In this document: positions 1 through 51,169 of the stretch, piece by piece
Layout: every line of letters begins with the position of its first letter
How positions within the stretch are numbered: the first letter of the stretch is position 1
Translations under genes and position numbers: made by a program
Notes under the pieces: model-generated
Told to the model about the DNA's origin: nothing
Database searches by the model: none
Seen by the model: the letters and a program-made list of their open reading frames with translations, nothing else
NCBI GenBank assembly: GCA_951406725.2
Contig: OX597825.1
Location: 41,974,001 to 42,038,000 of the forward strand
Direction: 5' to 3'
From: Octopus vulgaris
Lineage: Eukaryota
DNA length: 64,000 nucleotides

Positions 1-289
1 CTGATACTGTAGTACATCTCCAGCGTTAGAAGCTGTGCAAAAGGCAAGAAGAAGAAGAATAGTACTTATAAAAATAAGAATAATAGTAATAACGCAAAAA
101 ATAATTAGGTTATTGAAAAAAATCAACAAATGTCAAAGTAACTGTAATACTGTTTGACCTGTACTGAATTATATTGACAATAATTGATATTGTGAACACC
201 AATATAATTTATAGTAATGGTAATAATGGTTGTGACAGGCATAATAAAATTAATAACACTAAGAATAATGTTAACAATACTGATAGTTC

Positions 290-1330
290 AAATAGTCCCA
301 CTACAACATGCATATTTAGTTATCACACACCAAATAGTCGGTGGAAGTCATGCATTGATGACATAATATGGTTTAATCTACTTTGGTCTAATAATATGAT
401 TATGCAATTATTCAAGGAATTGCTTACTGCTTTATAGAAGAATTTCCCTCTATTTAGTAAATATCACCATATTTTTAATAAATGTAAAATAAGAATTTCT
501 TTCTCATCTTTACCTAATTTAGCAAACATTGTAGCAGATATTAAAAAGAATAATATTAACAGCTTTACTTGTTACAATCTAAATAGTAATAATTTCTAAT
601 AATGACAATCGTAATTACATCCCCAATGATGACAACAATAGCAGTAACAGCAGCGGGGTGATAAGTCGCAATTGTCAGCAACAACTTCTGATAATGACCG
701 CCAGTTGACTGCTTCAAACTCCAACTCTTTTGACAGTTGCACAAGCTATAATAGAGGTGGCACTTATGTGGACAGTAACTATAACAACATGAATTTTGAC
801 TTAGATAAGAGTGAAACCAATTGGTGTAGCATCAGTGGAGGTGATGATTATATAAATAACATAAATTATGATAATTACTGATGACAATATTAACAATCCA
901 TGCAACAGCATCAAGAATTAACCTTGCAATGGCAGTACTATTATAAATATCACCATCTCTGTTGACTCTTATGTAAACCTTGATAATACAAGTGATTCTA
1001 ATAGGACTAACAATAATTATTACTCTGTAAACTGCACATGAACATTTTAATATTCCTACTAGCAACACAGAGAATACTAGTGTTCATAGGTCTCATAAGT
1101 TATGTAACTGTCAAAATAGACTCCTACGTGCACTTAATAATTTATACCTCACTATAATTATTATCTATAGAAGTGACATACAATCTAATCAGACCACATT
1201 TACCAATATCAGTTCAACAGCTTGAGAATTGAAGTAAAGATTTTATAATCCTTCTCATAACTTTCACTCATGGAAAAAATTAGGGAATTAAAAAAGCAAC
1301 AAATATTCTAACCTACCTGGAGCATAATCA
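290..1330 (+). mobile_element. Degenerate Penelope-like element, C-terminal linker plus GIY-YIG endonuclease (probably Nematis-type)
   Basis: Broken frames read IIWFNLLWS...EEFP...KYHHIFNKCKIRISFSSLPNLANI, then an Asn-rich linker, CNCQN and IIYRS. This matches the PLE pattern IIWFNPP...KIFNxxxxKxSYSCMPN...CNC. Many stops. Confidence 0.7.
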
Positions 1331-2759: not shown

Positions 2760-5180
2760 TCTATAAGCTAGAAATGTTATCAATTGCAAAGCATTGGATG
2801 TGTGGATAATTAAAATATCCATCAAGTTGAACAGAAATGACAAAAATAACATTATTCAAGTTAATGCACCAACTGGTATCAGTGATGATGAAGAGATGGA
2901 GGTATTTTACTGGCAGCTTGACAGTGCCATCCAAGAAAAGCGAACCATACTTTATTGATAGGCGATTTTGATGCAAAGGTGGACATTAGGAATAATAAAA
3001 GTGAAAATGTTACTGGAAATTATGTATCTGGGTTAACAAGTGGAAGTGCAAAAATACTATTTCAATTCACATGTTACAAAAAAGAAATGAGAACAGTATC
3101 TTTTTTATTAAAAGAAGTGCCAGAAAAGGGACAGAATGAGAAAATATTTGATTTCCTACTTTCAAGTGGCCAAAATATAGTTCGGTACATGATGGCTACC
3201 AATGAAGTGAACACTGGAAGTGACCAAAGACTTGTCAAATGCAAAATAAAAATAAACACAACTAAAGAAAGGAACAAAAAACTAAGGAAGTCACAAAGAA
3301 CTTGCATGGAAAACCTCATATCAAAAGTCTCGGAGTTCCAGTTAGCCTTGAAAAATAGATTTGATACACTTTGGAACAAGACAGACAATAGCAAAACCAA
3401 GGAGACAATGAATATTATAACTGAGACAATAAAAACATAGCCAAGGAAACTATATCGAACAGAAAAAAAGGCAAAAGACCAAACATTACCGAGAGGTATT
3501 ATCATTCTCATGAATATCTGAAAAACAATGAAACAAGACTCATTTGCACAAAACATTGACTATACTGAATTATGTAAAACAATAAGGAAAAAACTCAGAG
3601 AAAATAAAAGAAAAAGTAAGTCAAATATGGAGATGATTAAGGAAACAATTGGAAACAACTAAAGTCTTAAAAGAAACTAAGCAAAGGATGGGGCGCAACA
3701 CACTCATTAAGCTAAATGACAAAGATGGAAAACAATTCACAGAGAAAAGAATGCTAGAAAGAATAAGAGAATTCTGTGTTGACTTATATCAATCAAACAA
3801 AGAAGTTTCCCAGACATTTTGGAGGCAAAAGTTAGAAATGTTATAAAAGAAATGAAAAACAATAAAACTGCATGTCTAGATGGAACTGAAATAAACATAA
3901 TAAAAGTGGTTGAACCAAGTACAGAGAAAGAAATAGTTAAACTATATACAAAACGCCTACGTATACATAAGATACTGGATAAGGGAAAAAGTTCTGAACT
4001 GATCCTTCTTTATACAAAAAAAAAAGGGATGCCACAAAGTTCTTAAGAACTACAGACCAATCAGGCTGCTATCACACACCTACAAGATCTTCTCAAATCA
4101 GCAATATTTGAGAGAAAGCTGGATGAGAACACTACAGCAGGACAAGCAGGCTTCAGGAAAATCTACTGTACAATTGATCACATAACTGCTATATACCAAC
4201 TGAGGGAAAAACAGCAAACTTACAGCATACCATTATGCTTAACATTTGTAGATTTTGAAGAAGCTTTTGATTCCATGGAAACTGATGATACATTAAGAGC
4301 GCTGGAGGAGATGGAAAGTGAAGGAGACTACATGAAATTATCAGAGAATGTGTACACCAACTGCAGAAGTACAGCAACTATCATCAGTAAAGTGATTCAT
4401 GTCAAGATTGGTAAGGGAGTCAGACAAGAAGACATCATATCACTCAAATTATGCAAATCTGTATTTGTAAAGGTTTTTAAAAAAATTGTATTGATTAGAT
4501 AAAGGATGCATGCTAAATCATCACAGATTTGTTGACCATATTGTACTCATTTCCAGAAGCATTAAAGATCCAACAGAAAACTAAAAGAAGAAAGCAAGAT
4601 ATGTGGATTCAGAAATGAAGTAATAGATGATAAAATAGTTGAACATGTAAACCAATACAGCTATCTTGAACAAATTATATGCTTAAAGGATCAGACCAAA
4701 GAAATTAAATGACAAATACAATTAGGATAGGCATCCTTTGGTACATTGAATTACATCATGAGCAGTAAATTGCCCATGTGTCTAAAAAGAATGGTTTTCA
4801 AAAAATGTGTGCTGCCTACCATTATGTATGCATCAGAAACATGGACTACCTACAGGAGTATTGAAAATAAATTAAGATCAACCCAAAGGACTATGAAAAG
4901 GAGACTGTTGAAGATTAACAAAATGGGTAAGTGGAGAAATACAGGAAAAGTGGAGCAGCAGTTTAACAGATATTACCTGGAAAATAAAAACTCTGAAATG
5001 ATCTTTTGCAGGATATGTGCTTAGAAGAAAGGACAATAGATAGAATACCAAATTGATAGAGTTTGCACCACACCCAGAAAAAAGGAGGAGAAGAAGACCA
5101 TGCAGAAGTTGAAATGAAGACTTTTTAAAATTCTTCAGCATCCAAATATGAATAAGAAAAATATCAGACGTTGGTTTGTA
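2760..5180 (+). mobile_element. Decayed RTE-clade LINE (APE endonuclease plus reverse transcriptase)
   Basis: Motifs in order: IIQVNAPT, IGDFDAKV, SDQRLV (APE); YRPIRLLS, QAGFR, FVDFEEAFDS, GVRQEDIIS, VLPTIMYASETW (RT and C-terminus). Frameshifted throughout. Confidence 0.9.
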
Positions 5181-12139: not shown

Positions 12140-12690
12140 ATTTATTTCACCATTTATTAAGCTGTTGAAAACAATAAGATAGTTTGTTAACTATCTTCAA
12201 AGCAGTTGCCATTTGAATGAGAACAGGCATATAGAAAAAGACAGAGAAAAACACTAATAAAAAAGCACGAGAGAGATAGCCAACCTTACAGCAAACATAA
12301 TCAGTGTCTTACAAGTATCAAAATTACATAAACCAGACTGGAATGGTTTATGATGTGCCTGGTGGTCTAGCTTTAAACTGAGATGTATTTTTTTAATTGT
12401 GGACATGAAGAAAATATCTTGCTCTAGGAATTTATACTGTCATTGGAGATTCTTAAGATTTTTAAAAGATACAATTTTTCAAGAGAATATATCAAACATC
12501 TTATTGGCTTGTTAAGATAAGGTTTGATCTTGGAATGAATTTTCTATTTGATGTTGTAGCTGATATTTTCATTTTTTAAGTTTCCAGATTAATGCCAAGA
12601 AGGCTGTTGCATGTTTCTTTGTATGGGGCCTAAAGGTCAAAAGATGGTTGCTGTATCTGGGTTTAAAATTTTTCTTCCAGTGATCCAGGC
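12140..12690 (-). mobile_element. PLE GIY-YIG endonuclease C-terminal fragment plus 3' flank
   Basis: FKPRYSNH...LIWKL...IKxKI...PY...RCLIxSLEK...INS...SSCP; homologous to 15110-15620. Confidence 0.7.
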
Positions 12691-12729: not shown

Positions 12730-14265
12730 AGAGAAGAAATGGAACAACATGTAACAATTAGAAGCTGATAGTTATATGGAATGATCATAGTTTAATTATG
12801 GTTAAGATAACATAACATTTACTGCTGTTTCAGTTTGTTATTTTTGATGTAAACTTGCGTTTATCTCGTTCCATGTAACATCATCAAAATTATTTGAAGT
12901 TTACCAGAGGAATATTGACAGGAGATCGAAGGGTGGCAGGAGAAAAAAGGAAAAAAGAAAAAGAAAAGAAAAAGGCAAAAAGGAGAAAGGAAAAGGTTCG
13001 TCATGTCTTTAGGCTTACGTTTTTGCATCCTTAAAAGATGGTGTGTGTGTGTACAGTTGCTTCAAGTAGATGAATGGAGCAGTGAGGGAGTAAAAGAACC
13101 AGTTGACCGGTGGTGTTAGTCAAAAGAGTTATACCTAGTAGTAATACCAAGTATCATTAATCATAACATTATAACACTGTTTGAGTCCATTAGATAGGTC
13201 CTTATGATTACAAATAATGCCTTAATTAAAAATAAAGGGCACTCTTAAAAATTTAAGTGTGATATACGGTATAAATCTGGGTTACGTAAATAGGTGTAAT
13301 AAATAAATAGTGTTGTTATGTGTGGCCAGTGTTCACTATTCATTAATAAAATTAAAACAAATCAACTCAGCTAGAATAGGTTAATTCTTTGGTTATTTGT
13401 ATTTACGTTAATAGCAGTACTAGCAATTAGTATGTTAGTCAGTGATCTAACTTTAATGTGAATATATTAAAGAGAATTGTAGCTCTGGGTGTACATAGTA
13501 CATCTAAGATAAATAATTCAGTTAGTCAAAGTAAATTAAATATAATTGTGGTCTATGCTATTGTGTTGTGCTATGAGTTAAGGGTAAGGGTCAAAGGGAG
13601 GTAATCAGAGGTTAGACAAGTTAGCTAATAAACAGTAATGTAAGGTAGCAGTATTTAGAGAATAAGAATTTATCTTCATTAAATATGTTGTGTTTTTCAC
13701 GTCTTGTTTATTAAGCAATTCTGATTTGGCCATTAAAATGAAGAATTTCTCATTTATGCATAAATTGCAGCATTTATTTTTAAGGTTGTATGAAGATATT
13801 TTAGCTATTATTATTTTTTTATCATTACTACTATTATTATCGTTATCATGGTTAATATGATTATTAATATTAATATGAATCTTATTGTTCTTCCAGCTAT
13901 TTTTATTATTACTACTACTATTGTTATTGTTATTCTTATTATATTTATGATAATTATTATAGATATCGTAGCTATTATTAGTATTATTATAATTATAGAC
14001 ATTTTTGTTATTTGGACTATTTATATTAGGCTCCAAGTATAGGTACTTAATTTTTTGCTTATAGCCTGCCTTTCCCAATGCAATGTTATAATGTTTCTTA
14101 TACTAACTGAACACATCTTCATTAGACGAGAGATACAAAATTCTTTTACTAATGTCCTGGACAAGTCCTCTTTTTATAAAATTTGGGTGGTTGCTATGTG
14201 CATTTACAATAACCTCTAACTCATAATTTTCTTTATATATATGAAAGGTATTGGTATCCAGATGA
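12730..14265 (-). mobile_element. PLE 3' portion (RT thumb, Asn-rich linker, deleted endonuclease, long 3' region with HHR)
   Basis: HSNHPNFIK...RILYLSSNEDVF...YNIALGKAGY, then CCNLCINEKFFIL...LLNK. An HHR motif lies ~700 bp downstream and the element ends near a (TA)n tract. Confidence 0.8.
12815..12893 (-). ncRNA. Type I hammerhead-like motif at PLE 3' end (U3 core variant)
   Basis: att-TTGATGA-tgtta...aaacGCAAgttt...taaca-aact-GAAACAGCAGTA-aat. Confidence 0.55.
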
Positions 14266-14376: not shown

Positions 14377-14408
<32 letters not shown>

Positions 14409-14409
<1 letters not shown>

Positions 14410-14978
14410 ATAATTAATGTAGGATAAAATTTTTTTCGGGAAAAAATTTTATCAATGGCCAGCATATCAAAAAATACCTTTAAGGGCTAAATTTATAAAT
14501 AATTTACAAGATAAGGGCAGAAAAAAAATTCTAATGCCAAATATGCCGAAACTTAAAATTGTCGATAACCATTATAATTTATGCGTCTCGAAACAAACTG
14601 ATAGAAATCTCTAAAAATTCATTATTACTGTATTGGTCCAATTTCGGAGTTAATTCATAAGAAAATTTTCCCCTCTTCAGCGGCAAATATGCGAGATATA
14701 AGTGAAATACTTATTCATACCCATGGAAAAAGCAAGCACTAAGTCCCAAGCAGACCTAAGCACCCCAAATATATCCAAAATAGAAAAATCTTTGGCACAT
14801 CTCGAGACACACGTGATTCGAACTAGAAACTTTCACAGAGTGATAGAATTCGGAAGTGAACACTATTCAATTTATAATTAATGTAGGATAAAATTTTTTT
14901 CGGGAAAAAAATTTTATCAATGGCCAGCATATCAAAAAATACCTTTAAAGGTTAAATTTATAAATAATTTACAAGATA
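14409..14978 (-). mobile_element. Retrozyme-like non-coding element: 464-bp unit with ~105-bp terminal redundancy and one HHR
   Basis: 14409-14513 is repeated at 14873-14978. HHR at 14625-14686. Flanked by (CTAT)n/(TA)n tracts; no ORF. Confidence 0.75.
14625..14686 (-). ncRNA. Type I hammerhead ribozyme
   Basis: ttgccg-CTGAAGA-gggg...ctcc-GAAA-ttgg-a-ccaa-TA-cagtaa. Canonical core, near-palindromic stem III, AUA cleavage triplet. Confidence 0.8.
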
Positions 14979-14994
14979 TCTTGACCTATCTTGC

Positions 14995-15054
<60 letters not shown>

Positions 15055-15109: not shown

Positions 15110-15620
15110 TATACATTTTGCCATTTAGCAAGCTGGAAAAAACAAGACTGTTTGCCAACTGTTTCTAAAATTGATGACATTTGAAAAGGAAACATTCAAA
15201 AGGAGAAAACGAAAAAAGAGAAAGGAAAACATAGGGAAGATAATCAATGTTACAATGAACATATATTAAAAATACTTAATGAGATGAGAAGGGTTTAAGA
15301 TATGTCTGGTGGTTTAGCTTTAAATTCCACCAAGATGTATTTTTTTAAATGCAGACATGAAGAAAAAATCTTGTTCCTGAAACTTACAGTCATTGGAGGC
15401 GCTCAAGCTCTTTAAAGGCTATAGATTTTTGAGAGAATATGTTGAACATCATTTTGACCTATTAATGTAGGGTTTGGTTTATGGAAAGAGCTTTCCATTT
15501 GATGTCAAAATTAATCCTCTTTGTCTTTAAACTTCCAGATTAATGCTGAGACTGTTGTTGTATGTCTCTTCTGGCTTTCAAATTTTAAAATATGTTTGTT
15601 ATATCTGGATTTAAATTTTC
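15110..15620 (-). mobile_element. Second copy of the PLE endonuclease fragment family seen at 12140-12690
   Basis: Colinear nucleotide similarity; FKSRYNKH...SALIWKFK...IKWK...FSSCLH. Confidence 0.7.
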
Positions 15621-15621
15621 A

Positions 15622-16070
15622 AGGTACATAACCGAAGACCACACATCTTCCAGCAAGACTGCAACATTTCATAAGGTTAGAAAAAAGCTAAGTGTGGATG
15701 TGTGCCAATCTCTATGATCATGTTCTCCCAGACACATGGCCTCCTAGCTCATCAGACCTCAAATCACTGGTCTAGTGAGACAGAAAGGTCAATCAACAGC
15801 CCCATCGCACAGTCTCTCAAGCCAGCCATAACCAGGAGAGACTACCATAACCAGCACAAAGTCTAAAATTAATAAAGATTATCTGATTCAGGCATGTCAA
15901 CACTTCCAACCATGTATTGAAGCAACCATTGATGCTAACAGTGGATTCATTAAATAGCTGGGATAAAAAGATTCTCAAGAATATTTGTAACAATTAGTTT
16001 TAAAATACAGCTTTTATTTGATGAATTCTGAATTCATTGACATGATTTCAGAAAACTGATGCACCTTGTA
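15622..16070 (+). mobile_element. 3' fragment of a DD37D-like transposon
   Basis: RPHIFQQD...DTWPPSSSDL; ends in TGCACCTTG followed by TA. Confidence 0.6.
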
Positions 16071-23499: not shown

Positions 23500-23554
<55 letters not shown>

Positions 23555-23556
<2 letters not shown>

Positions 23557-24076
23557 CACTAATACTAATAATAATACTAATAATAGCTCTAGTAGTGAAA
23601 ATGAAAACGAATTGTCCATAAATAATACTAGTACCATGAATTATCCCCCCAGTTGTAATTGTAGGATTAGATCGAAATGTCCAGTATCTGGCTGCTGTTT
23701 GGTCCAAAATGTAGTTTATAAATGTACAATAGTGACTTCAAATAATAGCTATCTTTAATTTGGTTGTTCGGTGGATCTAAAAAAACGTTTAAACAATCAT
23801 TTTTCCTCCTTTAGGCTTAAACACAAGGCAGGTTGCACAACATTGTGCAGTAAAATTTGGGAACTGAAAAGAAATAATATAGAATTTAACCTAAAATGGG
23901 ATATAATAAGGAAAGCACAGCCTTATAAAAATAGTAGAGATGGTTGTGAACTTTGTTCTATGGAAACATTTGAAATTTTAAAACATAGGAATAATACAAA
24001 TTTGTTAAATAACCGTTCTGAACTAGGAGTATCTTGCATATATCACACAACCCGTATGTTTAAATATTTTAAATAA
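23555..24076 (+). pseudogene. PLE GIY-YIG endonuclease domain with one in-frame TAA
   Basis: ORFs 23465-23758 and 23771-24076 share a frame. TAA at 23756-23758 occupies the Tyr position of the YIG-like motif (YFG). Confidence 0.9.
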
Positions 24077-27383: not shown

Positions 27384-29254
27384 CTAAGTAATACAAAATA
27401 GATTAACCCACTAGCTACTTTTCTTGTAATATATATTCACAGTTTAAAAATGACTCATATTTAAAACCAACATTGTAAGAAGTAACCCTTAATATCACCC
27501 CAATTTGCTTGTCTAATGAGGAAGAAATATGACAATGTGCCCTATTACTTCACCTGCATTTTCAAGCTAACTCAAAAATTTAATTATATCAACAGGTGAC
27601 AGGTACTGCTATTGTTGAGTAACTTTATATAGATTTTATAAATAATTTAGTAAACTTGGTACAAATTTAATTTTCTATAACTTGGATGACATCTTTTAAA
27701 ATAAGTTCAACAGAAATGTGAAAAAATATATGCCATTCTCTTTCAATATGAGAAAATTACTTCTGTAATAGCATATCATTCAACTTGAGTAGAGAGATAT
27801 TTTCTACTGATATTATAGATATATTTGTGTGTCTATAGATGTGTGTGTAAAAGGACATGTATATATATATATATATATATACATAAGGAACATTGGAGGG
27901 AATTGATATAAGAAGTAGATACAAGAAGGAAATTCATTTTCAAAAACTAATTTTTTATCATCTTTTCTGCATCGCTATTATCAATATGAAAATGATATTT
28001 CTGAGAAACTATTATCATCGACAATGAATGCTTTATTTTTAGAAGAAATTTTGTTGTTTTTTTTTATTAAGTTTTTTTTTCTCTTTATTTTGCAGGAAAT
28101 ATTTTTCTGCAAAAAATCAGTTTTAAAATGTACTGTATTGCTGAATATAAAACTAAGTTGTATATTGTTTCCAAACCTATACAACTGCAATGCAAATATT
28201 TTATTCATATTTATTCAAGCACACTTTTATTCAGCACACACTCACATACATGTACAGAGAGAGAGATTGGTAGATAGATAGTTACAGACATAGATATATT
28301 GCATACTGGCTCAACATTATTCTCATATTACAGACTAATAATTAAAACTAGAATAATGATAGCAGGTCAAAGGGAATTGAAAGTAAAATCAAGCAAGCCA
28401 GATAATATTGCCTACTGTTTTTATATCTGGTTTAAATAGATGTTCAGTCCCTATTGATCTGGATAAGATGGCAATAGTGGAGATAAGAAAAGTGTCAAGT
28501 TAAATATATGTCTGTTTTGTGTAGTTTAATGCAAAGAATCTTTTTGTGATGTTATCCCTTACTACAATTAATGAATATTATTCTTGAAGTTATTAGTCTC
28601 TTAGGATTGGTAGAGATTAAATTTCCATTGACCTCCACATAGGGTAGAGAGAATAAATAACCTTTAGTTCATTATGTATTCGTACTTGCCTTCAGGTTTT
28701 ATCATCTGAAGTAACAGCTAAACTAGCAAGTCAAGGGATAGAATGAATAATGGTTTGGGATGAGTATCTCTTGGAAGACAATAAATGTAGTAAACATTTT
28801 TAAAAAATGTATCAGATGGTGTCATTGTTATTTAACCTCAGGTCAACTTTGACAATGTGAAAACCTGATTAAAAGTCATTCCAACCTTAACCACCCATTT
28901 CATTCTTTTTCAAAAGCATGTTATAGGGCGCATAATCTAATGTGACCTTTTTTTAAGATAGGAAGGTGAGATTTTTAGGGTAAGTTGGCTGTTATTTCAT
29001 GCCTGCTGAATGCCTTCATACAAGTATTTTGATTGGTAGATACATATTTTTGTGTATAATATTAAAAGAAATATATCTTATAAAATGTCCCACTTCAAAT
29101 ATTTGATACTTATTCTCATTCTACGTCAAAATATCTTTCCTTTCTTACTAAAATGACTCTTGCTAATGTAGAATACTCTCTGGTTGTCTAAACTCCATTG
29201 ATTAACTTAAGACAAACATGTATTTCCAGAAAAGGAAATTAATTAGAGGTGAAG

Positions 29255-38589: not shown

Positions 38590-39000
38590 TAAGATAACAT
38601 TTAACCTTTCTCATGCATATACCACATGTCCCCTTAATAGACACCGCAACACAGAAACAGTTGTATACAAGGAAGAGGTAACACCTAAAAATCCCAATGG
38701 GCAGTTAAATGTGCAGAAGTACGTGAGCATAACTGAAGGTCCTATCCAAACCAGATCCAACAACCATATGTCCTCCTTTAATATCCAGGAGAGCTGCTAT
38801 GTCAGCCCTGGTTAAACATTTATGGTCATTTAAGGAAAGCATCAAGGATTACATCATGTGGAAAATCATGGAGAAGTGCATGCCTTATTTAATGATAACA
38901 AAAAGTGCAGGTTATTCATAAATAACTGCCTCTGTGTTGCAGTGTTTGTTAAGAGAACATGTAGTGCTGTTTCTGCATGAGCATCTAGCTTCTGTCTCAG
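38590..39000 (+). mobile_element. PLE GIY-YIG endonuclease remnant
   Basis: TCPLN...TETVVYKEEV...KYVSITEGPIQTRSNNHMSSF...WSFKE...WKI...PY...KKCRL. Confidence 0.75.
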
Positions 39001-39466
39001 GTGTGGATCTACCTGCTAATATTTTCTTTACATTAGGTTTACTGCTAAAAATATTTTGAAGATGTGTCTATTAAAAATTTTACCAAAACAATTCATACTA
39101 CACATAAGTGTCTATCTAGTTTATCAACTAAGCTAAGGACAATTTTGCCCATACAAGTTTTTACACTCAGAGAGAAGGGTATGGAAGAACCAAAAGACAT
39201 TCTGTTGGTGTTTTCTCTTGAAGGCTAGCTGCTAGCAATGTTAAAGACAAGATACTTTACATGCTTGATCCCAAAAGAAAATGGTACTGGAAAGTTTTGT
39301 GGTTCACAACCCACCTCTCTCCCAGAGCCTAAAATATTATTTGGGCAAAATATACCGAAAGGGATTACGGTCTACCTTGGTAGAGAGAAATGGAGAAAGG
39401 CCTATTGTGTGTGGGGGAGGGATATGTATCTATCTGTGTGTGTGTGTGTGTAAATATATAATATAT

Positions 39467-49157: not shown

Positions 49158-49206
<49 letters not shown>

Positions 49207-49763
49207 CGTTTAAATATTTGTTGTGCAAGATTTTTTATGTGAAGTCGTGTGTTGAAACAGATATTGTTATATTTCGGAATGGTCATATTGCCAGTTTAGC
49301 CAATAAAAACACACGCACTATATATTTGGTGTTATTTTGCTTCAGTGATATTTATTTTTTACATTAATCTTAATCTTATTTCGGCCAAAGTTCTTTCGTC
49401 ACACTCCTGTAACCGCATCAGTGGTCCTTTGTTTTCTTCTCACTTACTTGTGTCTCTCCTTACTAACCGTCAGCCATTTTGTATTTCTATTGTATGTCTT
49501 CATTTGCGCATGCTTATATCTCTATGTGCGTCTATGTTTATTTAGTGTGTGTGTGAGGGGGATGCCTGTAATATTTGTATCTTCTGGTTATATACATTCT
49601 TGTAATTTGTATTTTGTTTTTGTTGCTTTTGTTCTAATTTTGTTCATGTGTTTACATCCACCCATTATTATCATTACATATGCTTGTATGTATGTATAAC
49701 AACAATATTAGTAATAATAATAATAAATCTAATTGAAAAAAAAAAAAATAAATAAAAATAAAA

Positions 49764-49794
<31 letters not shown>

Positions 49795-50291
49795 CATATA
49801 CATACATATACATATATATATATACATATATACATATATATACATACATACATATACATATACATACACATACACATATATATACATATACATACACATA
49901 TATATACACACATACACACACATATACACATATACATACACATATACATATATATAGTTATTCATTTCTATTTCTTTAATTATCTGTGTATTTATTATGT
50001 TTGCAGGATCCACTATCGTCATATGTTGTGGTGTGCGCTATTGCTCCATTCTAGTTTTCTATTCAGGCTAGGTTTATTTTCTATTATATGTGTAGCTTCT
50101 GTAATTTGTCTAATTGTTGCATCTGTTCTATGTGTGGACAATATCTTAATCTCTATGTTATTGATTGATCCCCCGTGTTCTTGTTCAGCGTGTTGGTACA
50201 GAATCGATGAGCTTTTACCTTCCTTGAGTTGTCTCCAATGTTCATTCACCCGCTCACCAATGCTTCTTGCTGTTTCCCCTACGTATGTTAC

Positions 50292-50576
50292 TGTAACAAG
50301 ACAGTAACATACGTAGGGGAAACAGCAAGAAGCATTGGTGAGCGGGTGAATGAACATTGGAGACAACTCAAGGAAGGTAAAAGCTCATCGATTCTGTACC
50401 AACACGCTGAACAAGAACACGGGGGATCAATCAATAACATAGAGATTAAGATATTGTCCACACATAGAACAGATGCAACAATTAGACAAATTACAGAAGC
50501 TACACATATAATAGAAAATAAACCTAGCCTGAATAGAAAACTAGAATGGAGCAATAGCGCACACCACAACATATGA
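50292..50576 (+). pseudogene. PLE GIY-YIG endonuclease C-terminal half (mirror copy at 50019-50294 on the minus strand)
   Basis: [22 protein letters not shown]...HAEQEH...RQITEATHI...PSLNRKLEW. The apparent N-terminus of the track ORF is just the antisense arm. Confidence 0.9.
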
Positions 50577-50790
50577 CAATAGTGGATCCTGCAAACATAA
50601 TAAATACACAGATAATTAAAGAAATAGAAATGAATAACTATATATATGTATATGTGTATGTATGTGTGTGTATGTGTGTATATATATGTGTATGTATATG
50701 TATATATATGTGTATGTGTATGTATATGTATATGTATGTATGTATATATATGTATATATGTATATATATATATGTATATGTATGTATATG

Positions 50791-50854
<64 letters not shown>

Positions 50855-51169
50855 CAATTAGATTTATTATTATTATTACTAATATTGTTGTTATACATAC
50901 ATACAAGCATATGTAATGATAATAATGGGTGGATGTAAACACATGAACAAAATTAGAACAAAAGCAACAACAACAAAAACAAAATACAAATTACAAGAAT
51001 GTATATAACCAGAAGATACAAATATTACAGGCATCCCCTCCCACACACACACTAAATAAACATAGACGCACATAGAGATATAAGCATGCGCAAATGAAGA
51101 CATACAATAGAAATACAAAATGGCTGACGGTTAGTAAGGAGAGACACAAGTAAGTGAGAAGAAAACAAA

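Follow-up and report, generated by a model that had tools for sequence, protein, structure and literature searches.

A hammerhead-bearing, protein-free repeat of Octopus vulgaris, likely a non-LTR retrozyme, with junctions resembling those of Penelope-like elements

Non-coding animal repeats that carry hammerhead ribozymes, the non-LTR retrozymes, are known from molluscs: those of mussel measure 350-390 bp, and it has been proposed that they are mobilised by Penelope-like elements (PLEs) (PMC7229834). In frogs, animal retrozymes have been traced to the pseudo-LTRs of PLEs (Li, Clavereau & Pollet 2026, bioRxiv 10.64898/2026.07.22.740005). Both PMC7229834 and this preprint treat the enzyme that mobilises animal retrozymes, and the circular template, as open questions. 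PLEs themselves leave a characteristic insertion layout, in which a full copy is preceded by a truncated copy with an inverted 5' arm adjacent to it (Craig 2021, bioRxiv 10.1101/2021.04.23.441226; Arkhipova 2013, PMC3846280); the same sources describe how the inverted junction bears palindromes, how TSDs are masked by the microsatellites targeted, and how one end has a tail of 30-40 bp. A PLE enzyme has been shown to nick both strands of AT-rich DNA and to begin reverse transcription from two internal positions that lie downstream of the hammerhead; the RNA that it uses in vitro is mainly unprocessed (Frangieh 2024, PMC11167929).

The class considered here is already known, as animal retrozymes and the PLE insertion pattern have both been described. 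A description of this particular family was not found among the listed papers on octopus or cephalopod hammerheads, ribozymes or Penelope, and supplements and Repbase/Dfam may list it. In its available text, the O. vulgaris repeat annotation counts 30 recently active Penelope families and does not use the word ribozyme; the review PMC7761336, in the portion available, makes no mention of octopus; and the giant squid genome paper reports 235 hammerhead matches. A retrozyme in a cephalopod would hardly surprise a specialist, and the value of the locus is that of a test case: in a high-copy family with PLE-type junctions, the questions of enzyme and template become testable by mapping ends and alleles. 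Such a family would also reclassify part of the “unknown/SINE” repeats in octopus genomes, and it would predict an abundant small, possibly circular, RNA.

Our best explanation, to which we give a probability of roughly 0.72, is that the element is a copy of a many-copy, protein-free hammerhead family, likely an animal non-LTR retrozyme, and likely inserted by the reverse transcriptase and endonuclease of a PLE acting in trans. Membership in the retrozymes is put as likely, not as proven.

The unit, its hammerhead and its fold

The window, that is, the whole stretch of DNA analysed, comprises 64,000 nucleotides (64 kb) of O. vulgaris, and all coordinates refer to it. The element consists of a 464-bp unit (14409-14872) joined head-to-tail to a 106-bp partial copy, making about 1.23 units in all:

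14409-14872, minus strand: full non-coding unit, 32% GC; its sense 3' end (14409) abuts a microsatellite, with a TATA overlap
14873-14978, minus strand: 5'-truncated second copy (partial tandem or pseudo-LTR), the last 106 nt of the unit, without the hammerhead
14423-14453, either strand: AT-rich hairpin of 13 bp, 14 nt from the sense 3' end, recurring at 14887-14918

The original prediction of a 464-bp element with a terminal redundancy of about 105 bp was borne out, as 14409-14513 and 14873-14978 are identical in 103 of 106 columns (97.2%) with their starts offset by 464 bp. The right copy has the family-majority letters at 14949 and 14952, where the left copy differs; because the majority letter stands in the right copy at both substitutions, the two terminal copies were probably identical at the time of insertion.

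The predicted lack of an ORF also held: the longest stop-free run in the unit is 63 codons and the longest from a Met is 52. Inside the element, no similarity to PLE proteins was seen in any frame, with no profile match at E<=10, although few of the PLE protein queries include the ORF N-terminus. A tblastn search of the element with 12 long relatives of the neighbouring ORF gave a best score of 18.9 bits, as compared to 17.7-25.4 bits in 30 shuffles. Derivation of the unit from a decayed PLE ORF was rejected, neither the profile nor tblastn giving a signal against the element. A tRNA gene scan returned 0 genes, and no A box was present; a tRNA-derived SINE was accordingly rejected. A B-box-like word lies at 14823-14815 (minus strand), with neither an A box nor a tRNA fold, and is probably due to chance. 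The 64-kb window holds no second copy of the element. Weak blast matches at 49166-49231 and 27635-27649 were dismissed as microsatellite or AT-rich chance matches, as were, as chance, the four loci returned by a pattern scan (0 and 1 in metagenome contigs, 0 in viral contigs and 3 in prokaryote genomes), all of which match over 22-26 nt only; one of them, L004, has no GAAA or stem after its core-like word.

One complete hammerhead motif is predicted on the minus strand:

14625-14686, minus strand: predicted type I hammerhead
14686-14681/14630-14625, minus strand: stem I, 5 of 6 positions paired, the exception being a C-A mismatch (14682/14629) beside the cut site
14680-14674, minus strand: core CUGAAGA
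14673-14670/14649-14646, minus strand: stem II, 4 of 4 pairs including one G-U; loop 2 has 20 nt
14645-14642, minus strand: GAAA
14642-14639/14635-14632, minus strand: stem III, 4 of 4 pairs, with a 3-nt loop
14633-14631, minus strand: AUA, the predicted cut falling between 14631 and 14630
14691-14689/14620-14622, minus strand: possible 3-bp extension of stem I; its middle pair, A-U in this copy, is G-C in the family majority

All the hallmarks of type I (CUGANGA, GAAA, UH, helices I-III and an open helix I) are present at 14625-14686, and the hammerhead descriptor matched the window at this site alone; by chance, 200 shuffled windows gave 1 match and 5000 shuffled units gave 0. The prediction of a canonical hammerhead on the minus strand therefore stands as to a complete type I motif, but “canonical” is too strong, because stem I contains a C-A mismatch, loop 2 is 20 nt long, Rfam gives no match, and the ribozyme fold of this copy lies 5.8 kcal/mol above the minimum-energy fold. 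Rfam hammerhead families gave 0 matches at the gathering score and were not among the 9 matches at E<=10; as these models reflect particular subtypes, the miss lowers “canonical” and not “hammerhead”. For an isolated 106-nt segment, the minimum-energy fold is not a hammerhead. The mismatch in stem I likely weakens the ribozyme of this copy, and a copy with a single hammerhead cannot itself release a monomer. An extension of stem I through atctc/gagat had also been proposed; the two words are complementary at 5 of 5 positions, but their pairing probability is 0.0, and the pairing stays absent with the hammerhead imposed. For the 3-bp extension, the change of 14690/14621 from A-U to G-C involves two CpG-type changes and is hence weak evidence of covariation.

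Outside the motif, the unit forms a long-range helix:

14798-14812, minus strand: 5' arm, 15 bp with G-U pairs (the 12 bp first reported are 14800-14811)
14581-14595, minus strand: 3' arm (the 12 bp first reported are 14582-14593)

The core of this helix (14811-14800/14582-14593) forms 12 of 12 pairs, two of them G-U, and extends to 15 bp, with pair probabilities of 0.95-1.0. Its stacking energy of -24.6 kcal/mol was equalled in 2 of 300 shuffles, while the best plus-strand helix (-13.9 kcal/mol) was equalled in 201 of 300. Full pairing on the hammerhead strand, as first described, thus holds and is strong by energy, but the length is ordinary (at least 12 bp in 214 of 300 shuffles and at least 15 bp in 29 of 300) and the plus strand also forms 10 of the 12 pairs. 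Folding of the whole unit gave a similarly divided outcome for the comparison with shuffled sequence that had been called for: the minus strand is favoured, with a z of -2.1 when linear (2 of 100 shuffles) and -1.9 when circular (6 of 100 shuffles; 61% paired), and the plus strand is not (+1.3 linear, +1.4 circular), but the effect is modest, as a z of -2 was likewise reached in 2 of 12 control tile-strands, each compared with 12 shuffles. These predicted folds lend modest support to a structured RNA.

Insertion junctions and copies in public sequencing runs

Three features flank the element, none of which figures in the earlier description:

14979-15001, plus strand: inverted arm at the 5' junction, about 23 nt, a reverse copy of unit positions 14521-14499
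14377-14410: (TCTA)n microsatellite, left flank
14999-15054: (TA)28 microsatellite, right flank; no TSD discernible

Read in the hammerhead sense, (TA)n is followed by the short inverted arm, then by the 5'-truncated copy and the full unit, and (TAGA)n comes last. The arm's outer end blurs into (TA)n, so that it could be 14494, and a 12-nt palindrome sits at its junction. In metazoan non-LTR retrozymes, TSDs exceed 4 bp when present; here the longest word common to both flanks measures 7 nt and lies away from the ends; the microsatellite hides any TSD. The surrounding 64 kb are AT-rich (29-41% GC per 2 kb) and rich in microsatellites. Two 3' ends are seen, at 14409 and at about 14494-14499, some 85-90 nt apart, in one locus plus 4 contigs. 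A partial tandem, an adjacent inverted 5' arm and an AT-rich or microsatellite target all occur at the locus, and the layout, as read from the sequence, matches the published PLE insertion signature.

Parts of the element were found in 20 listed public sequencing runs from 10 studies under 4 organism labels. In the four runs compared, out of 24 listed, 4735, 1422, 295 and 70 contigs matched the monomer, at identities from below 90% to above 99%. Because thousands of contigs span these identity bands, this assembled sequence indicates a many-copy, diverged family. Summed contig depth in run X1 was 35,000-1,136,000 per bin and is not taken as copy number; none of the runs found to contain it is recorded as RNA, X13 and X16 were guessed to be RNA, and no inference on expression was drawn from them. 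No listed contig piece spans the whole unit, the contigs being too short for dimers or circles. Of fourteen joints within contigs, 5 turn back in the direction of the start, 4 of these by crossing the unit end; another 5 switch strand and 4 skip a part, the 5 strand inversions lying at 5 different places in the unit; in a further junction table, 11 of the 12 listed entries cross the unit end. End-to-start junctions with sides of 47-51 nt occur in X1, X6 and X13, with no ORF between.

Sequence variation among these copies touches the hammerhead at several points. Among the 40 variants listed of 78, none falls in the catalytic core; one loose end varies at N7, a core position that is free. At 14629, the letter of the majority (99-100% in each of the four runs) re-forms the stem I pair that is broken in this copy, a variant at 14648 turns the G-U of stem II into G-C, linked minor variants at 14683/14684 keep stem I pairing, and a 2-nt deletion at 14662 (54% in X1) would lengthen stem II. 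The majority change at 14811 breaks an outer pair of the long helix, its partner being unvaried among the 40 of 78 variants listed. Counting the 24 majority differences (at least 50% in X1, among the 40 listed), 10 keep pairing, 1 breaks it and 13 are unpaired. As evidence the tally is weak, since any transition at a G-U pair yields a standard pair; in addition, 8 of the 24 differences are CpG-type decay in this copy, which mimics covariation. A second 3' end near 14494 is hinted at, thinly, by a (TA)n loose end before 14494 in 4 X16 contigs, near the outer end of the inverted arm (among the 24 of 321 loose ends listed).

The junctions bear on three explanations that differ from an RNA passenger of PLEs. 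In the first, the unit is a satellite-like sequence spread at the DNA level by unequal crossing-over or slippage, the 106-bp redundancy being a local duplication. Tandem retrozyme arrays may indeed expand like satellites (bioRxiv 10.64898/2026.07.22.740005), but the copy of 1.23 units seen here is isolated and sharply bounded within a microsatellite, with one end bearing an inverted arm, and it is the only one in 64 kb; a maintained ribozyme also argues for an RNA stage. We regard this explanation as the most improbable of those considered.

The second has a SINE-like element moved by a LINE (RTE, CR1, L1-Tx1 or Dong/R4), with the arm produced by twin priming or a repair-templated fold-back. 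It gains something from the LINE RT relic in the window and from the B-box-like word at 14823-14815, and junction repair can produce a short fold-back; moreover, these four LINE groups are given as recently active in the O. vulgaris repeat annotation. The element ends in neither poly(A) nor a simple repeat belonging to it, has no A box and no tRNA, and shows many T-runs on its sense strand; a partial tandem with an inverted arm that is duplicated and not merely flipped is the PLE pattern, and type I hammerheads are tied to PLEs (PMC7229834; PMC4209133). All of this weighs against a LINE, which we consider very improbable as the mover.

According to the third, what is taken here for an independent family is the terminal part, pseudo-LTR with tail, of a PLE family that is autonomous, and the locus is a stump of it. 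PLE pseudo-LTRs do carry hammerheads and most PLE copies are 5'-truncated (PMC4209133; bioRxiv 10.64898/2026.07.22.740005), and hammerhead stem II is where the ORF of the anole PLE begins (PMC11167929). An X16 contig of 890 nt would fit as well: it runs along the unit over 14786-14613, beyond which it has 719 nt unlike the unit, and it could be a subfamily, a flank or an autonomous parent PLE. Yet the unit end joins its own start both here and in contigs of X1, X6 and X13 with no ORF between; there is no PLE protein similarity in any frame, few queries including the ORF N-terminus; and stem III is full, unlike that of the minimal PLE hammerhead (PMC4209133). A stump is therefore, in our judgement, unlikely.

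Penelope-like relics and other features of the window

The nearest coding remnant lies to the left of the element:

13704-14264, minus strand: decayed Penelope/Poseidon-type ORF relic with RT thumb, Asn-rich stretch and endonuclease C-end

Its internal part between the Asn-rich stretch and the endonuclease C-end is missing, and it has one in-frame stop. A word-index protein search with this neighbouring ORF gave no relative, while an exhaustive protein search gave 199 relatives at E<=0.001. The two best named ones are Octopus bimaculoides and O. sinensis proteins with 52-53% identity; the Octopus protein relatives carry wrong names in the databases. Among 151 proteins, the relatives show YRDD in 43 and C-x-L-C-x-x-E in 17, together with YIG-like motifs, which we take to be Penelope/Poseidon features and by which we class the relic. 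Pfam gave no name for the relic nor for 10 of its relatives. Asn-rich inserts have been described in PLE ORFs (PMC3846280).

A profile built from 39 relatives places the relic at 14264-13920 (70 bits) and 13922-13704. The same profile finds PLE-like pieces at 198-1288, 12385-12676, 15310-15633, 23546-24073 and 38621-39013, so that PLE ORF relics occupy at least six places of the 64-kb window; it has no match between 14264 and 15310. The hammerhead unit was also considered as the 5' pseudo-LTR of the adjacent relic, and this was rejected because the relic lies beyond the microsatellite and begins with the RT thumb instead of an ORF start. Relic and element are probably separate insertions into one microsatellite-rich patch. 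Copies extending into a PLE ORF had been named in the original prediction as evidence against it; at this locus the unit leads into no PLE ORF start, and the overall outcome on this point is mixed. A blastn comparison of the unit with six PLE regions of the window, made for homology to a PLE pseudo-LTR, gave weak AT-rich matches only.

Several other features of the window deserve mention. Diverged copies of a PLE endonuclease C-terminus lie at 12341-12676 and 15288-15663 (minus strand), with blocks 71-86% identical and about 2.95 kb apart, and flank the neighbourhood of the element. Further PLE ORF relics are found at 198-1288 (plus strand), 23546-24073 (plus strand) and 38621-39385, the last with matches on both strands, which suggests another inverted insertion. 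A near-perfect palindrome of 1.4 kb (49600-50996, centre about 50297; 96% over about 1400 nt including microsatellites) carries mirror-image GIY-YIG-like frames at 50019-50384 (minus strand) and 50211-50576 (plus strand) that have no Pfam match; it has the look of a PLE insertion in inverted form, or else of a fold-back in the assembly. At 2922-4502 (plus strand) there is a decayed LINE, with Pfam matches to an endonuclease (E 0.006) and RVT_1 (E 7.8e-5), both below the curated cut-offs. Between 16344 and 17199 lie several direct repeats of 50-80 nt, 72-92% identical, which are probably SINE-like fragments.

Proposed origin and comparison with known systems

The insertion extends 348 nt past the predicted cut site and over the unit junction. 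Because of this, we infer from the sequence that the template was longer than the unit, a single self-cleaved linear monomer being impossible. The proposed route is as follows: read-through of a genomic tandem would yield an RNA longer than the unit, possibly then cut by the hammerhead and made circular by a host ligase; a PLE enzyme would nick an AT-rich microsatellite and reverse transcription would start at 14409, 222 nt downstream of the cut site; the observed 1.23 units would arise by copying through the whole unit and 106 nt of the next before a stop; the short inverted arm that closes the 5' junction would come from priming on the other strand or from a fold-back; and private changes, in part visible here and including the stem I mismatch, would have followed.

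Mobilisation by a PLE is favoured by the match in anatomy, by the recurring tandem and inversion joints, and by the PLE relics in at least six places of the window. Against a PLE passenger stand the lack of an identified autonomous partner in the window and the putative tail of about 85-90 nt, longer than the 30-40 nt of PLEs. The full anatomy was read at one locus.

Reverse transcription of a circular or multimeric RNA had been anticipated. A template longer than one unit fits, and the unit junction recurs in other contigs, but a circle is not supported over a linear multimer, as the locus has one hammerhead. With regard to the template alone, an uncleaved linear multimer is somewhat favoured and a circle falls a little short of even odds. 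The more specific version of our best explanation, in which a 464-nt RNA is cut by the hammerhead, ligated into a circle and read about 1.23 times, is tentative. The insertion crosses the cut site and the unit junction, the terminal copies agree at two family-variable sites (14440/14904 and 14468/14933), the circular fold has a strong closing helix, and retrozymes of coral, mussel and axolotl accumulate as circles (PMC7229834), all as expected of a circle. However, the locus has only one hammerhead, a linear multimer predicts the same sequence, the z for circular folding is only -1.9, and the PLE enzyme in vitro mostly uses unprocessed RNA, with ribozyme mutants still inserting (PMC11167929).

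A bolder extension of the passenger reading, which we offer as a doubtful possibility, is a very abundant octopus retrozyme family with the full PLE signature in its dispersed copies, two starts of reverse transcription (14409 and about 14494-14499), an unusually long tail of 85-90 nt, and the 890-nt X16 contig as its autonomous parent. If true, it would offer direct evidence, at the level of insertions and from outside the vertebrates, for PLE enzymes acting in trans as the movers of animal retrozymes, and alleles within partial tandems could separate circular from linear templates.

Compared with the minimal hammerheads of PLEs (Cervera & de la Pena 2014, PMC4209133), the motif is likewise of type I, and helix II can exceed 4 bp; unlike them, it combines a helix I of 6 bp with a helix III of 4 bp and lacks an additional nucleotide before G10.1, and because of these three features it is closer to the canonical type. 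With endonuclease-bearing PLEs (PMC3846280; Craig 2021; PMC11167929) the locus shares the partial tandem, the inverted 5' arm with its palindrome, the AT-rich target, the lack of a discernible TSD and a 3' end downstream of the hammerhead. It differs in lacking an RT-EN ORF, in an arm of only about 23 nt and in a 3'-end offset of about 85-90 instead of 30-40 nt; with no ORF for RT and GIY-YIG between pseudo-LTRs, the element as sequenced is not an autonomous PLE.

The PLE-derived animal retrozymes of the 2026 preprint (bioRxiv 10.64898/2026.07.22.740005) resemble it in size (within 51-972 bp), in PLE relics nearby and in monomer-like dispersed copies, although by the definition given there, under which two complete hammerheads mark an active retrozyme, the locus is a “monomer” and not “active”. 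That preprint links retrozymes to PLEs through their co-occurrence and through pLTR homology, in vertebrates and with four invertebrate outgroups, none of them molluscs; here the link consists of insertion anatomy, pLTR homology not having been found against the six PLE regions of the window. As compared with metazoan non-LTR retrozymes (Cervera & de la Pena 2020, PMC7229834), the unit of 464 bp is slightly above their range of 150-450 bp, and the locus is a 1.23-mer with one hammerhead, an inverted arm and no discernible TSD. What it shares with them is the non-coding nature, a GC content below 50%, the head-to-tail arrangement, the many copies, and a type I hammerhead with a stable stem III.
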